Source: Bacillota bacterium
GTDB lineage: Bacteria > Bacillota > Clostridia > Christensenellales > Aristaeellaceae
Direction: 5' to 3'
Assembly: GCA_023398575.1 (NCBI GenBank)
Contig: JAEWSC010000045.1
Location: 37,436 to 61,435 of the forward strand
DNA: 24,000 nucleotides
Part shown: positions 9,896 through 15,883 of the stretch, piece after piece
Position numbering within the stretch: position 1 is the stretch's first letter
Layout of the letters: the number at the start of each line of letters is the position of its first letter
Made by a program: the position numbers and the translations under genes
Notes under the pieces: generated by a model
What the model was told of the DNA's origin: nothing
Seen by the model: only the letters and a program-made list of their open reading frames with translations
Database searches by the model: none

Positions 9896-9924
9896 TTGAC
9901 AAATTTCGATTTGTCGCATAGGAT
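9896..9924 (+). promoter_or_regulatory. ars operon promoter with an overlapping palindromic operator.
   Basis: TTGACA (9896-9901), 17-nt spacer, TAGGAT (9919-9924). The perfect palindrome GACAAAT-TTCG-ATTTGTC (9898-9915) covers the -35 box and spacer. Confidence 0.55.
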
Positions 9925-9961
9925 GGTCATATCTAATATTCTTGATTTGAGGAGTGTGGTC

Positions 9962-10279
9962 ATGGAAACTGCTTATGAAAAAAACGCCAAAGTGTTCAAG
10001 GCGTTTTGCGATGAAAAGAGGCTGCGAATACTTGAGCTTTTGCAAGGCGGAGAAAAGTGCACCTGCGTGCTGATAGAAGCCTTGGATATGCCGCAATCCT
10101 CACTGAGCTATCATATGAAAATTTTGTGTGAGTCGGGTATCGTAGTAGGGCGTCAGGATGGGAAGTGGACCCACTACCGTATCTGTGAGGATGGCAGCCG
10201 CTTGGCGGCGGAGCTTGTACAAACGCTGACAGAGGCAAAACAAAATCCACAGCCAAGCGATGCGCACTGTGAGCAATAG
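9962..10279 (+). CDS. arsR: ArsR/SmtB-family metalloregulator.
   Basis: The ATG at 9962 is preceded by GAGGAG. FCDEKRLRILELLQGGEKCTCVLIEALDMPQSSLSYHMKIL carries the CxC (CTC, 10058-10066) at the position of the ArsR As(III) site. It is the first gene of an ars-type cluster. Confidence 0.85.
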   Translation: METAYEKNAKVFKAFCDEKRLRILELLQGGEKCTCVLIEALDMPQSSLSYHMKILCESGIVVGRQDGKWTHYRICEDGSRLAAELVQTLTEAKQNPQPSDAHCEQ

Positions 10280-10308
10280 CGGTTTGAAGAAAGCGGGGCA
10301 TCACAAGT

Positions 10309-11322
10309 ATGCAATTTCTATCTGGCCTATGGGATTTTTTTCAGAACCAAATTCTCGGCATGAAATGGCTGAACGAGCTGATTCAAGCAGGTCTTAATGC
10401 ATTGGGGCTTAACACGGCCAACCGCTGGGTGGGCAGCCTGCAGTTTTTTCTGTATGACGTAATCAAAATCACAGTGCTTTTGTGCCTGCTGATTTTTGTC
10501 ATCAGCTACATTCAAAGCTACTTTCCGCCGGAGCGCTCCCGAAAAATTTTAGGCAGGTTTCATGGCATTGGGGCAAACTGCATCGCCGCGCTGCTGGGCA
10601 CGGTAACACCCTTTTGCTCCTGCTCGTCAATTCCCCTATTCATTGGCTTCACCTCCGCCGGCCTGCCGCTGGGTGTAACCTTTTCGTTTTTGATCTCCTC
10701 ACCCATGGTGGATTTGGGCTCGCTGCTGCTGTTGATGAGCATCTTTGGCCCCAAGGTCGCCATCCTCTATGTGATTTTCGGCCTGGTAATCGCTGTGCTG
10801 GGCGGCACGCTGATTGAAAAGCTGCGCATGGAAAAATACGTGGAAAGCTTTATTTTAACCGCCGGTCATGTGGATATCGCATCGCCGGACCTTACCAAAA
10901 GAGACAGGCTGCAATACGCCAAAGAGCAAATGGCATCCACCTTCCGCAAGGTGTTTCCGTATATCCTGGTTGGCGTTTCCATTGGCGCCCTCATTCACAA
11001 CTGGATCCCCCAAGAGTGGATAGCAAAAGCACTGGGCGGCCCCAATCCCTTTGGTGTTGTAATTGCCACAGCCGTCGGCGTGCCGATGTACGCGGACATT
11101 TTCGGCACGATACCCATTGCCGAGGCGCTGCTGCAAAAAGGGGCGCTGCTGGGCACGGTGCTCGCCTTTATGATGGCGGTAACCACCCTGTCGCTGCCAT
11201 CGATGATCCTGCTGCGCAAGGCGGTCAAGCCCTGGCTGCTTGCGCTGTTCATCGGTATTTGCACCGTTGGCATCATGCTTACCGGATACCTCTTTAACGC
11301 CTTGCACACTTTGATTGTGTAA
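10309..11322 (+). CDS. Predicted permease of the ArsP_1/DUF318 type (ArsP-like organoarsenical efflux candidate).
   Basis: 337 aa and polytopic. It carries the TPFCSCSSIPLF motif (CSC at 10615-10623), characteristic of the permease family that includes Campylobacter ArsP. It lies between arsR and acr3. Confidence 0.7.
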   Translation: MQFLSGLWDFFQNQILGMKWLNELIQAGLNALGLNTANRWVGSLQFFLYDVIKITVLLCLLIFVISYIQSYFPPERSRKILGRFHGIGANCIAALLGTVTPFCSCSSIPLFIGFTSAGLPLGVTFSFLISSPMVDLGSLLLLMSIFGPKVAILYVIFGLVIAVLGGTLIEKLRMEKYVESFILTAGHVDIASPDLTKRDRLQYAKEQMASTFRKVFPYILVGVSIGALIHNWIPQEWIAKALGGPNPFGVVIATAVGVPMYADIFGTIPIAEALLQKGALLGTVLAFMMAVTTLSLPSMILLRKAVKPWLLALFIGICTVGIMLTGYLFNALHTLIV

Positions 11323-11347
11323 CCAAATGAAAAAGGGAGTGTACGAT

Positions 11348-13814: not shown

Positions 13815-13848
13815 GCGCAACATATCATCACAGGAGGGGGTGGGCAGT

Positions 13849-15063
13849 TTGGCAAAGCCATCTTGCTGCGGCGGCGCGCCTGATGCCAAAGAGGAAAAAA
13901 TACGGTATGGCAAATTGATTGGAACGGTCAGCGTGCAGAGCAGACTCAAAGCGCCTGCAAGGACTTCCATCTGCTGCGGAGCCGGGCGCAAGCATTCACC
14001 CGGGCAGGCCTGTAACGCCAGCAGCAAAAAGATACAGGAACCCTGGGTGCTTGGGCCTATCGATACGCCCGCCGGCATCGTTCCGCGCGTCAAAACGCAG
14101 CTTTCGATCAAGGACCGGCTTGGCTCATTTAAATGCAGGTGGAATATTGGCCGCATGGATTACAAGGTTGATCCAGGGTTGTTTTGCGTGGGTACGCCAG
14201 ATGACCAATCCCCGGTTCTTGTGACCGCCAATTACAAAATGACGTTTGACCGCGTGCGCAGCGAGCTAGGCGGCATAAGCGCCTGGATCGTTGTGCTGGA
14301 TACAGATGGCATCAACGTTTGGTGCGCTGCCGGCAAGGGCACCTTTGGAACAAAAGAACTGGTACACAGAATTTCCGCAACAAAGCTTGCCAAGGTGGTT
14401 TCCCACCGCACAGTGATCGTGCCGCAGCTGGGCGCAACGGGCATCGCCGCACATGAGGTGTTAACACAATCGGGCTTTAAAGTTGCCTATGGCCCTGTTC
14501 GCGCCGAGGACCTGAAAGCCTATCTTCATGCTGGAATGGTTGCCACCAAAAGAATGCGGACCGTAAAATTTACGATGCTGGACCGGCTGGTGCTCACGCC
14601 CATGGAGCTTGTTTTCGCCATCAAGCCGCTGATGCTTGCCTTTGGCGCAATGTTCATTCTCAACACCATCGGGTTGGGGCAGTATGGGCTTGCCGATTTG
14701 ATTGCGCTGCTGGGCGCGGTCATCACAGGCTGTATCGCAGCCCCGGTTCTGCTGCCCTTTCTACCCGGCCGGGCGTTTTCTTTCAAGGGCTTTGTGCTGG
14801 GGCTGCTCTTTGCGGTGGCCATAAACGTTTGGCAGGGCTTTGCGAACATGCAGGCATTCGGCTTTTTGAAGGCAGCGGCCTATTTTCTTTTGATACCATC
14901 CATCTCATCGTTCCTTATGATGAACTTTACGGGCAGCTCCACCTATACATCGCTGTCAGGCGTGGATAAGGAAATGAAGATTGCGCTTCCCGCCATCATT
15001 CTTTCCGCCGGGGCAGGCGTCATTCTATTGCTTGTCAGCGGCTTTGTTAAGGTCACGGGGTGA
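13849..15063 (+). CDS. hgcA: HgcA-type corrinoid protein with a C-terminal transmembrane domain (mercury methylation). The start is uncertain: TTG 13849 is preferred, with GTG 13840 and ATG 13786 as alternatives.
   Basis: PWVLGPIDTPAGIVPRV...IGRMDYKVDPGLFCVGTPDDQSPVLVTANYKMTFDRVRSELGGISAWIVVLDTDGINVWCAAGKGTFGT matches the HgcA corrinoid domain. It includes the diagnostic N(V/I)WCA(A/G)GK cap-helix motif (Cys codon 14323-14325). About five hydrophobic helices follow. AGGAGGGGG lies upstream of TTG 13849. Confidence 0.85.
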   Translation: MAKPSCCGGAPDAKEEKIRYGKLIGTVSVQSRLKAPARTSICCGAGRKHSPGQACNASSKKIQEPWVLGPIDTPAGIVPRVKTQLSIKDRLGSFKCRWNIGRMDYKVDPGLFCVGTPDDQSPVLVTANYKMTFDRVRSELGGISAWIVVLDTDGINVWCAAGKGTFGTKELVHRISATKLAKVVSHRTVIVPQLGATGIAAHEVLTQSGFKVAYGPVRAEDLKAYLHAGMVATKRMRTVKFTMLDRLVLTPMELVFAIKPLMLAFGAMFILNTIGLGQYGLADLIALLGAVITGCIAAPVLLPFLPGRAFSFKGFVLGLLFAVAINVWQGFANMQAFGFLKAAAYFLLIPSISSFLMMNFTGSSTYTSLSGVDKEMKIALPAIILSAGAGVILLLVSGFVKVTG

Positions 15064-15078
15064 GAAGGAGCGATGAGC

Positions 15079-15342
15079 ATGAAGTATTTAAAGAATGTAG
15101 CCACCCTCAAGCATGATTTTCAAAAGTGCACAGGCTGCGGCGCATGCCTGAACGTATGCCCTCATGGGGTGTTTGAGCCTTATCAAAAAAAGGTGCGCAT
15201 CACCGATCTTGACCTTTGCATGGAATGCGGCGCATGCAAAAAAAACTGTCCGTTTGAAGCCATTCAGGTGCAAAAGGGCGTAGGCTGCGCCGCCGCAATA
15301 CTCTCCAGTTTGCTGACAGGCAGCGAACCCAAATGCTGTTGA
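15079..15342 (+). CDS. hgcB: HgcB-type 2x[4Fe-4S] ferredoxin.
   Basis: AAGGAG (15065-15070) lies 8 nt before the ATG at 15079; the ATG at 15073 is too close to the SD. The motifs are CTGCGACLNVCP, CMECGACKKNCP, an additional Cys in GVGCAAA, and a C-terminal KCC (15334-15339). The gene starts 15 nt after the hgcA stop. Confidence 0.85.
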   Translation: MKYLKNVATLKHDFQKCTGCGACLNVCPHGVFEPYQKKVRITDLDLCMECGACKKNCPFEAIQVQKGVGCAAAILSSLLTGSEPKCC

Positions 15343-15382
15343 CTTGTTTACACTTCATTTAACATACAGAGGAGGAAGTCCC

Positions 15383-15883
15383 ATGGATTTTACACTCGAG
15401 GCACTGCAAGCGGCCCATTGGCCCCAGGTTGCCGCCATCTACCAGGATGGCATTGCAACCAAGATTGCTACCTTTCAAAATGAAGTTCCCACATGGGAGC
15501 AGTGGGACAAGGGCCACAGCAAGGCCTGCCGCATCATCGCAAAGCGCGGCGATGAGGTTCTGGGCTGGGCAGCGCTAAGCCCCGTATCAGACCGCTGTGT
15601 GTATGCGGGCGTTGCCAACGTAAGCATTTATATCGGGCAGCCCTACAAGCAACAGGGCGTTGGGAAGGCGCTGATGCGGGAGCTGATCCGGCAGTCTGAA
15701 GAGGCCGGCTTCTGGACCCTGGAATCAAAAATAATCGCAGAAAACACGGCCAGCCTGTCCCTGCACGCGGCCTGCGGCTTCCGTTTGGTTGGCACGCGGG
15801 AGAAGCTTGGCAAAATGGACACAGGCATTTGGCACGATGTTGTTTTGGTGGAGCGCAGAAGCCAAATAGTTGGTTTGGATTGA
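15383..15883 (+). CDS. GNAT N-acetyltransferase of the phosphinothricin acetyltransferase (PAT) / ArsN1-like family.
   Basis: The ATG at 15383 follows GAGGAGGAAG. IYQDGIATKIATFQNEVPTWEQW..., VANVSIYIGQPYKQQGVGKALMRELI and ...ENTASLSLHAACGFRLVG follow the PAT-family pattern. The gene starts 40 nt after hgcB. Confidence 0.78.
   Translation: MDFTLEALQAAHWPQVAAIYQDGIATKIATFQNEVPTWEQWDKGHSKACRIIAKRGDEVLGWAALSPVSDRCVYAGVANVSIYIGQPYKQQGVGKALMRELIRQSEEAGFWTLESKIIAENTASLSLHAACGFRLVGTREKLGKMDTGIWHDVVLVERRSQIVGLD

Follow-up and report, generated by a model that had tools for sequence, protein, structure and literature searches.

We analyzed a 24-kb stretch of DNA (the window) from a 4.5-Mb, 99-contig assembly (genome label G000), in which hgcA and hgcB, the gene pair linked to mercury methylation, lie beside an arsenic resistance operon. 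The hgc unit of the window is probably a variant of the marR_ars-arsM-GNAT cassette of Clostridia, with HgcAB in the place of ArsM, so that the region would form an arsenic island of 2 units, the hgc unit being under the control of a MarR_ars-type repressor. The hgcAB pair was found in 2013, and its native role and inducer have been open since. Positions 9896-15883 encode 9 genes, all on the + strand, in the order arsR–arsP–arsE–acr3–arsC, an intrinsic terminator, and then marR–hgcA–hgcB–GNAT (Table 1). Sequence reading together with a promoter and terminator scan assigns these genes to 2 separate transcription units, because a terminator follows arsC and marR is preceded by its own promoter. 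In the whole-genome search, we identified one acr3/arsE/arsR operon and one hgcA (NF040863, 466.4 bits), adjacent to each other, with a single tblastn match for acr3 in the genome. A sequence-only reading of the window had placed a complete arsR/ArsP-like permease/thioredoxin-like/acr3/arsC operon directly upstream of hgcAB, and all of these genes are present at that place on the + strand. The adjacency stands, but the hgc unit is headed by marR, a gene which that reading did not mention, and the predicted terminator and second promoter keep the 2 units apart.

Close counterparts of the hgc unit carry arsM as cargo. In Clostridium carboxidivorans P7 and Clostridium sp. JS66, we found arsR-arsE-arsP and marR-methyltransferase-GNAT-C_GCAxxG, with acr3 further along and no hgcAB. 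The C. carboxidivorans enzyme is identified as an arsenite methyltransferase by NF008823 (298 bits; cut-off 263), its MarR is 55% identical to that of the window, and its GNAT is 57% identical over all 166 residues and matches the same sub-threshold ArsN1a profile at 139.9 bits. Across the marR-arsM-GNAT cassettes of these 2 strains and of sister species, the regulator is 54-61% and the GNAT 50-66% identical to the window proteins, and the cassettes also share with the window the operator position and the adjacent arsR, arsE, arsP, and acr3. The middle gene differs: in the cassettes it encodes an S-adenosylmethionine (SAM)-dependent arsenite methyltransferase, whereas in the window its place is taken by the corrinoid protein and ferredoxin HgcAB, unrelated to it in sequence.

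To survey the slot behind this regulator without hand-picked examples, metagenome contigs were picked by MarR alignment only and dereplicated at 95% to 62 clusters. The next same-strand gene after marR was arsM in 36 clusters, with a GNAT gene then following in 23, and it was a GNAT gene directly in another 9, so arsM or GNAT was the next gene in 45 of the 62. hgcA occupied the slot in 6 clusters, with 1 pair of loci (L092/L093) reading hgcA-hgcB-GNAT. A DVU_1556-like methyltransferase and a C_GCAxxG protein followed in 1 cluster each, 7 clusters had an unrelated gene, and 2 were too short to judge. The other occupants (SDR, signal peptidase, aminotransferase, DJ-1, and others) were few and heterogeneous and were discarded as candidates for a further recurrent cargo. 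The frequency of arsM after this MarR is not a base-rate effect, because just 16 of the 400 Clostridia genomes sampled have an arsM above the cut-off.

Within the genus of the window genome, the exchange is directly visible. Among sister genomes that have the MarR and no hgcA, 3 (G011, G009, and G002) encode marR-arsM-GNAT and 1 (G012) encodes marR-GNAT, with the G011 cassette lying beside an acr3 that is 83% identical to that of the window. Two further genomes of the genus, G008 and G010, encode arsR-hgcA-hgcB. In the MarR tree, the window regulator grouped with 4 other HgcAB-linked regulators (SH-aLRT 99), and this 5-member clade was nested, with a support of 86, in a group of 52 rows whose other members are ArsM- or GNAT-linked. 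Another 26 HgcAB-linked rows formed a clade apart from this one, and a small mixed clade was also present, so that at least 2 to 3 exchanges between arsM and hgcAB are implied. In the GNAT tree, the 3 HgcB-linked GNATs formed one clade (98), with the ArsM-linked GNATs of G011 and G002 as nearest neighbors. The agreement of the MarR and GNAT trees, which cover both flanks, indicates that hgcAB and arsM were exchanged in place in this lineage, between a conserved sensor and a conserved acetyltransferase.

The regulator that heads the hgc unit fits the MarR_ars type in the features tested, namely a Cys pair with a C-terminal Cys and the gene context; it was set against AdMarR_ars through the published Cys triad rather than by direct sequence alignment. 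AdMarR_ars of Achromobacter deleyi As-55 is an autorepressor that is freed by As(III) or Sb(III) and needs Cys36, Cys37, and Cys157, and it is encoded upstream of arsV, arsN, and arsP (Yu et al. 2021, 10.1101/2021.08.12.456183). The window protein resembles the described members in its MarR fold, its occurrence in ars clusters, its vicinal N-terminal Cys pair and C-terminal Cys, and its frequent position before arsN-type acetyltransferases. The reported cargo of those members is arsV, arsN, or arsP, without arsM or hgcAB, and, in contrast to AdMarR_ars, the clostridial clade invariably has a further Q-C-H (Cys38) and in most cases ends in CC. Among 20 homologs of the window MarR, C30 and Q37-C38-H39 were invariant, and C31 and C145 were conserved in at least 90%. 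The 28 MarR-type proteins encoded beside hgcA share an invariant CCG[IV]-[ST][LM]xQCH block, with a terminal CC in most, and the ArsR-type regulators found beside hgcA have the classical C-x3-C-x-C site and Cys-rich tails. Further, Cys30/31 and Cys145 share alignment columns with cysteines of ars-cluster MarRs from Clostridium, Bacillus/Priestia, and Deinococcus. One such MarR belongs to the annotated ars operon of C. felsineum plasmid p337 (marR-GNAT-C_GCAxxG-arsR-acr3-arsC-arsD-arsA), and another lies on a Deinococcus plasmid between genes named ArsN1 family A and ArsN2 by PGAP; the Deinococcus protein, the nearest annotated ars-cluster homolog outside Bacillota, is 35% identical to the window MarR.

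A putative operator palindrome overlaps the -35 box of the marR promoter, and its perfect form has one copy in the 4.5-Mb genome, at this promoter. The motif GTTGCA-N3-T(G/A)CAAC stands at a fixed -47 from the marR start whether the cassette is ArsM- or HgcAB-linked, apart from a few copies at -53 to -57. Among 35 ArsM-linked cassettes, 26 carried it with no more than 1 mismatch and all with no more than 2; of 32 HgcAB-linked cassettes, 17 stayed within 1 mismatch, the failures being mainly those in which marR lies downstream of hgcB. As a background, random 130-nt segments drawn from these loci reached the 1-mismatch level in 1.3% of cases. We looked for a wider MarR regulon and discarded it, having found 7 other one-mismatch sites, most of them inside open reading frames (ORFs), against about 10 perfect or one-mismatch sites expected by chance. 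Control of the ars operon by the same MarR was also considered, since a site with operator-like half-sites at 9852-9868 is one of 2 GTTGCA-N(0-8)-TGCAAC matches in the 24 kb, with 0.06 expected. The case is weak and was set aside: the spacing is N5, and L007, a syntenic locus, lacks the site ahead of arsR.

As far as the sequence indicates, the regulation of hgcAB is very probably tied to trivalent metalloids. A MarR_ars-type dimer on GTTGCA-N3-TGCAAC over the -35 box would repress its own operon, and a trivalent thiophilic metalloid bound at Cys30/31 (perhaps with Cys38) and the C-terminal Cys would release the repressor. By analogy with AdMarR_ars, the inducer would most likely be As(III) or Sb(III), with methylarsenite, MAs(III), also possible. 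On release, hgcAB and the acetyltransferase would be expressed, while ArsR would derepress the adjacent efflux and reduction genes; 2 repressors with different operators (ArsR on 9898-9915 and MarR_ars on 13327-13341) may in this way answer to the same class of trivalent metalloids. Both the inducing ligand and what HgcAB does once induced are inferred. The arsenic responsiveness of hgcAB in Pseudodesulfovibrio mercurii ND132, which runs through an unrelated ArsR-type regulator, provides an independent precedent for this reading.

The Cys-rich MarR and ArsR regulators might instead sense Hg(II) or soft metals, with HgcAB serving in mercury handling and the ars context reflecting a shared thiophilic-metal stress regulon. 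The affinity of three-cysteine sites for Hg(II) is high, which counts for such a sensor, and the N-terminal CC pairs of HgcA and the terminal CC of both HgcB and MarR resemble a thiol relay. Other metal(loid) ligands of ArsR2 were not excluded by Gionfriddo et al. (10.1101/2022.10.17.512643). We nevertheless regard a mercury sensor as quite improbable: the same MarR subfamily and operator are mostly linked to arsM, in ars rather than mer operons, the characterized MarR_ars member answers As(III)/Sb(III), and no mercury-resistance gene was identified among the queried neighbors, mer genes not having been searched for explicitly.

To place the window among other methylation loci, we surveyed 80 hgcA loci with 10-kb flanks from species representatives, those closest to the window HgcA and mostly Bacillota. 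The queries were the proteins of the window itself, and arsB, arsA, arsD, and arsH went uncounted, so the ars linkage is, if anything, underestimated. At least one of acr3, arsC, arsP, or arsE was identified within 3 kb of hgcAB in 27 of the 80 loci and within 600 bp in 24, and 41 of 45 ars matches were on the strand of hgcAB. By contrast with this proximity, no acr3 or arsC match fell in the zone from 3 to 8 kb in the 41 loci whose flanks reach at least 8 kb to either side, and chance adjacency of ars and hgcAB is ruled out by this distance distribution. With a single ars locus per 4.5-Mb genome, a neighborhood of this size would contain it well under 1% of the time, which makes the enrichment near hgcAB large. 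The sequence-only reading had suggested a survey of this kind; the ars neighborhood extends well past the window genome, with the 27 linked species showing at least 5 architectures.

The linked loci span 4 NCBI phyla. The ars genes lie directly upstream of hgcAB on the same strand with a gap of at most 300 nt in 14 loci, directly downstream of hgcB in 8, and on the opposite strand in 3; in 1 locus (L008), acr3 is inserted between hgcA and hgcB, and in 1 (L007), a regulator stands in between, as in the window. In total, 22 of the 27 linked species look co-operonic, with ars genes abutting hgcA or hgcB on the same strand at gaps of at most 300 nt. Among cultured carriers, Acetivibrio mesophilus N2K1 has marR and arsR ahead of hgcAB with arsC behind it, and Ruminiclostridium hungatei DSM 14427 reads arsR-hgcAB-acr3-arsC. 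Cys-rich regulators were identified within 3 kb of hgcAB in 66 of the 80 loci (ArsR-type in 42, MarR-type in 27). The data support the conclusion that the ars embedding of hgcAB reflects selection rather than accident.

It could still be argued that hgcAB and ars have no functional link and are both accessory genes that gather in variable regions and travel together by horizontal transfer. hgcA is indeed patchy, being over the cut-off in 3 of 13 genomes of the genus and in 4 of 61 relatives, and the 2 units of the window have separate promoters with a terminator between them. The region also gathers several metal(loid) functions, as a chromate transporter gene (PF02417, 210 bits) lies with a small divergent gene at 6050-7694, two genes and 2 kb upstream of the ars operon. 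The linkage data already disfavor this explanation, which we hold to be very unlikely. Besides the short same-strand gaps in 22 of 27 species and the empty 3-8 kb zone, the regulators that head hgcAB in 66 of 80 loci are of arsenic type, the operator is conserved, and no mobile-element gene was seen among the Pfam-scanned ORFs of the window, where GC content is even. In L008 (positions 10001-12500, a Bacillota metagenome-assembled genome [MAG]), the order is marR-hgcA-acr3-hgcB, and the acr3 inside the pair is 89% identical to that of the window.

Several findings weigh against reading the hgc unit as an arsenic-responsive variant of the arsM cassette. No ars structural gene lies within 3 kb in 53 of the 80 hgcA loci, and a GNAT gene follows hgcB in only 2 of them (L007 and L014) and in the metagenome pair L092/L093. 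The MarR tree was built on few columns and has many unresolved forks, with the nesting node at 86% SH-aLRT. The inducer is taken from a homolog that is about 35% identical or less, and Hg(II) or Cd(II) would bind to such a 3-Cys site as well. The full marR-hgcAB-GNAT arrangement is accordingly a narrow lineage feature, seen in the window, L007, L092/L093, and, more distantly, L014; marR-hgcAB itself is common.

HgcA and HgcB of the window retain every motif linked to mercury methylation, including the cap-helix Cys and the C-terminal CC of HgcB. The HgcA cap-helix NVWCAAGK (residue 156, at 14314-14337) fits N(V/I)WCA(A/G)GK with its Co-ligating Cys, and HgcB has two CX2CX2CX3C (4Fe-4S) motifs, at residues 19 and 49, and a C-terminal KCC. 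We also observed an N-terminal extension of about 65 residues in HgcA (13849-14040) with two CC pairs (SCCGG..., ICCGAG) and one more Cys; the start M-x-x-x-SC-CGG and the second CC are kept in about 25 Bacillota HgcA proteins.

The position of HgcAB raises the further idea that HgcAB is itself a corrinoid-dependent arsenic methyltransferase that substitutes for ArsM, being induced by As(III) and methylating it or another trivalent arsenical, with its product leaving through ArsP/ArsE and mercury methylation as a side reaction. HgcAB holds the exact position of arsM, between the same regulator and the same GNAT, and the exchange occurred in at least 2 to 3 MarR lineages. No arsM was found in the window genome by tblastn at E <= 1e-6 (the best NF008823 match, E = 8e-9, was far below the cut-off), and arsM was likewise missing from the 10-kb surroundings of all 80 hgcA loci. 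Further, the cassette is accompanied by an ArsP_1 permease and ArsE in the window, as is its arsM counterpart in C. carboxidivorans. Against a methylase role, ND132 given As(III) or As(V) made no mono- or dimethylarsenicals, and loss of hgcAB caused no significant drop in its arsenic resistance, in the only experiment on record. The retention of all mercury methylation motifs speaks against it as well, a common slot implies common regulation and not a common substrate, and a complementarity test of arsM against hgcA across Clostridia is underpowered, as arsM is present in 16 of 400 genomes and about 1 co-occurrence would be expected. We consider such a substitution doubtful. Its boldest form appears unlikely to us; there, HgcAB of a set of anaerobic Bacillota would be interchangeable with ArsM and induced by As(III), the methylarsenical would leave through ArsP, the GNAT would protect the producer, and methylmercury would be a by-product. 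The earlier proposal that HgcAB is tied to arsenic or other metalloid stress, either by regulation or by methyl transfer, is thus upheld for regulation by the linkage and the MarR_ars-type sensor, and the ND132 data go against its methyl-transfer half.

The last gene of the hgc unit had been described as a PAT-family acetyltransferase of the family that includes ArsN1. Its position after hgcB in the same unit and its PAT-family membership are borne out, the latter by matches to phosphinothricin acetyltransferases in the PDB (9igk, E = 3e-17; also 5dwm, 4jxq, 1vhs, and 5jtf/5wph/6m7g) and by Pfam Acetyltransf_1 (49.6 bits). The ArsN1 label is not, since the best NCBIfam model, ArsN1 family A (NF040503), was matched at 134.9 bits, under its 170-bit cut-off. 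From these matches, the protein is best described as a PAT-family enzyme and not a certified ArsN1. Like PpArsN1 (PDB 5jtf, 5wph, and 6m7g), it has a PAT-family fold and sits in an arsenic gene cluster, whereas its match to PpArsN1 (5jtf, E = 1e-9) is weaker than those to other phosphinothricin acetyltransferases. A role in arsinothricin biosynthesis or self-resistance was considered and dropped, as no homolog of the RCCLKC-tail radical SAM family, which we take to be ArsL-type (arsinothricin synthase), was identified in the genome or the fetched loci.

Linkage of ars genes to hgcAB and the arsenic hypothesis are already published (PMC7438021; 10.1101/2022.10.17.512643). In diverse MAGs, acr3, arsC, arsM, and arsR flank hgcAB (McDaniel et al. 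2020, PMC7438021, Fig. 6), and in ND132 an ArsR-like regulator co-transcribed with hgcAB responds to arsenic and S-adenosylhomocysteine, from which an evolutionary link was raised (Gionfriddo et al. 2022, 10.1101/2022.10.17.512643); the earlier statement that ND132 hgcAB is controlled by such a regulator agrees with the latter paper. arsR lies upstream of hgcA in 14 of 31 confirmed methylators, and MarR-family genes upstream of hgcA in 2 isolates were mentioned without comment (Zhang et al. 2023, PMC10349881). The window resembles the McDaniel MAGs and the ND132 ArsR2-hgcAB locus in having hgcAB by acr3/arsC/arsR and a Cys-bearing, co-oriented arsenic-type repressor upstream of hgcA. The regulator here is of the MarR family and not ArsR/SmtB, and the ND132 locus has no ars structural genes. 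Neither the McDaniel nor the Gionfriddo paper describes the equivalence of the arsM slot or a conserved downstream GNAT, and we did not find the cassette identity in the searchable literature.

The earlier arsenic link rested on scattered neighborhoods and one ArsR-type regulator in one model strain. The reading of the hgc unit as an arsM-cassette variant offers a sharper comparative argument, with the same sensor type predicted to drive either arsM or hgcAB, from the same operator and ahead of the same acetyltransferase, and the exchange visible within one genus. Methylmercury production is poorly predicted by hgc gene abundance. Should the proposed induction hold, exposure to As or Sb would serve to predict the methylation potential of the paddy soils, mine-impacted sediments, and digesters that these Clostridia inhabit.

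In the ars operon, genes overlap or are separated by gaps of 29-54 nt. The ArsR assignment is also supported by NF033788 (78 bits; cut-off 55). The perfect inverted repeat in the ars promoter spacer is likely the ArsR operator and is distinct from the MarR palindrome. No NCBIfam equivalog was reached by the ArsP-like permease, whose assignment is one of Pfam family membership; it is 79% identical to its counterpart in L007 and 49% to that of C. carboxidivorans, with the marR cassette adjacent in both. ArsC scored 68-84 bits with the NCBIfam arsenate reductase models, all under their cut-offs, and was below those of the thioredoxin-coupled (pI258) type (TIGR02691, 70 vs. 174; NF010053, 84 vs. 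215). It can be called ArsC-like only by its LMWP fold, its CX5R(S) loop, and its context. Downstream of the GNAT gene, a hairpin may mark the end of the hgc unit; its loop was too long for the terminator scan to register it.

Table 1. Genes and predicted signals in and around the ars and hgc units (positions in the window)
Feature	Positions	Strand	Evidence and remarks
Terminator of the gene upstream of the ars operon	9820-9843		Terminator scan
GTTGCAGCGGTTGCAAC, MarR-operator-like half-sites	9852..9868	+	N5 not N3 spacing; 28 nt upstream of the ars -35 box
Predicted ars promoter, TTGACA-17-TAGGAT	9896..9924	+	Promoter scan, 10/12 matches
Inverted repeat GACAAAT-TTCG-ATTTGTC, candidate ArsR operator	9898-9915		Perfect, 7-bp arms, N4 spacer; in the ars promoter spacer between the -35 and -10 boxes
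arsR, ArsR/SmtB metalloregulator	9962..10279	+	105 aa; C-x-C at residues 33/35; PF01022, 50 bits
ArsP_1-family permease, candidate organoarsenical efflux	10309..11322	+	PF03773, 220 bits (cut-off 32.3)
arsE, MTH895/ArsE-family thioredoxin-like	11315..11692	+	PF13192, 92 bits; TIGR00412, 94 bits (cut-off 62)
acr3, arsenite efflux transporter	11747..12793	+	TIGR00832, 390.8 bits (cut-off 282.8)
arsC, LMWP-type arsenate reductase	12786..13205	+	P-loop CVHNSCRS; PF01451, 72 bits
Intrinsic terminator ending the ars operon	13236..13258	+	8-bp all-GC stem, then TTTTT; strongest in the region (terminator scan)
Putative MarR operator palindrome, GTTGCA-TTT-TGCAAC	13327-13341		Overlaps the -35 box of the marR promoter
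Predicted marR-hgcAB promoter, TTGCAT-17-TATGAT	13328-13356	+	Sequence reading
marR, marR_ars-type repressor	13374..13814	+	146 aa; Cys30/31/38/145/146; PF01047, 51.5 bits (cut-off 24.6); heads the hgc unit
hgcA	13849..15063	+	404 aa; TTG start at 13849; ribosome-binding site GGAGG at 13834; NF040863, 465.6 bits (cut-off 275)
hgcB, ferredoxin	15073..15342	+	NF040864, 121.2 bits (cut-off 99)
PAT-family GNAT, ArsN1-like	15383..15883	+	166 aa; 40 nt after hgcB; strong ribosome-binding site
Hairpin GGGGCTGCC...GGCAGCCCC, candidate end of the hgc unit	15916..15953		9 bp, GC-rich; between GNAT and a convergent protease gene; sequence reading

Further arsenic-related arrangements were observed in the fetched loci. 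On a Thermacetogeniaceae contig (L090, positions 2935-4950; also L091 and L145), hgcA-hgcB is followed by ArsN2 (NF040501, 143.9 bits; cut-off 125), and within 6 kb of it we identified arsR-acr3, a C_GCAxxG gene, and a pair of marR and a DVU_1556-like methyltransferase gene. Cassettes of the marR-arsM-GNAT and marR-GNAT kinds repeatedly have a gene for a C-GCAxxG-C-C family protein immediately behind the GNAT (L087, 7846-8274; L183, 5914-6345; and several metagenome loci); the window genome has one copy of this gene, on contig C46, away from the hgc locus. On plasmids of Priestia (L184, 1-6400) and Bacillus cereus (L185, 2800-6400), a permease gene is headed by that of a MarR homolog which shares the Cys pair and terminal CC. 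Divergent from the latter are arsR, a gene of the carboxymuconolactone-decarboxylase family, and an ATP-grasp gene, with an RCCLKC-tail radical SAM gene nearby in Priestia. These plasmid clusters may serve organoarsenical biosynthesis or resistance. Finally, most of the above-threshold arsM matches in Clostridia hold one in-frame stop, often TGA, in the matched region. Selenocysteine might account for these stops; NCBIfam includes models for ArsM variants that contain it.

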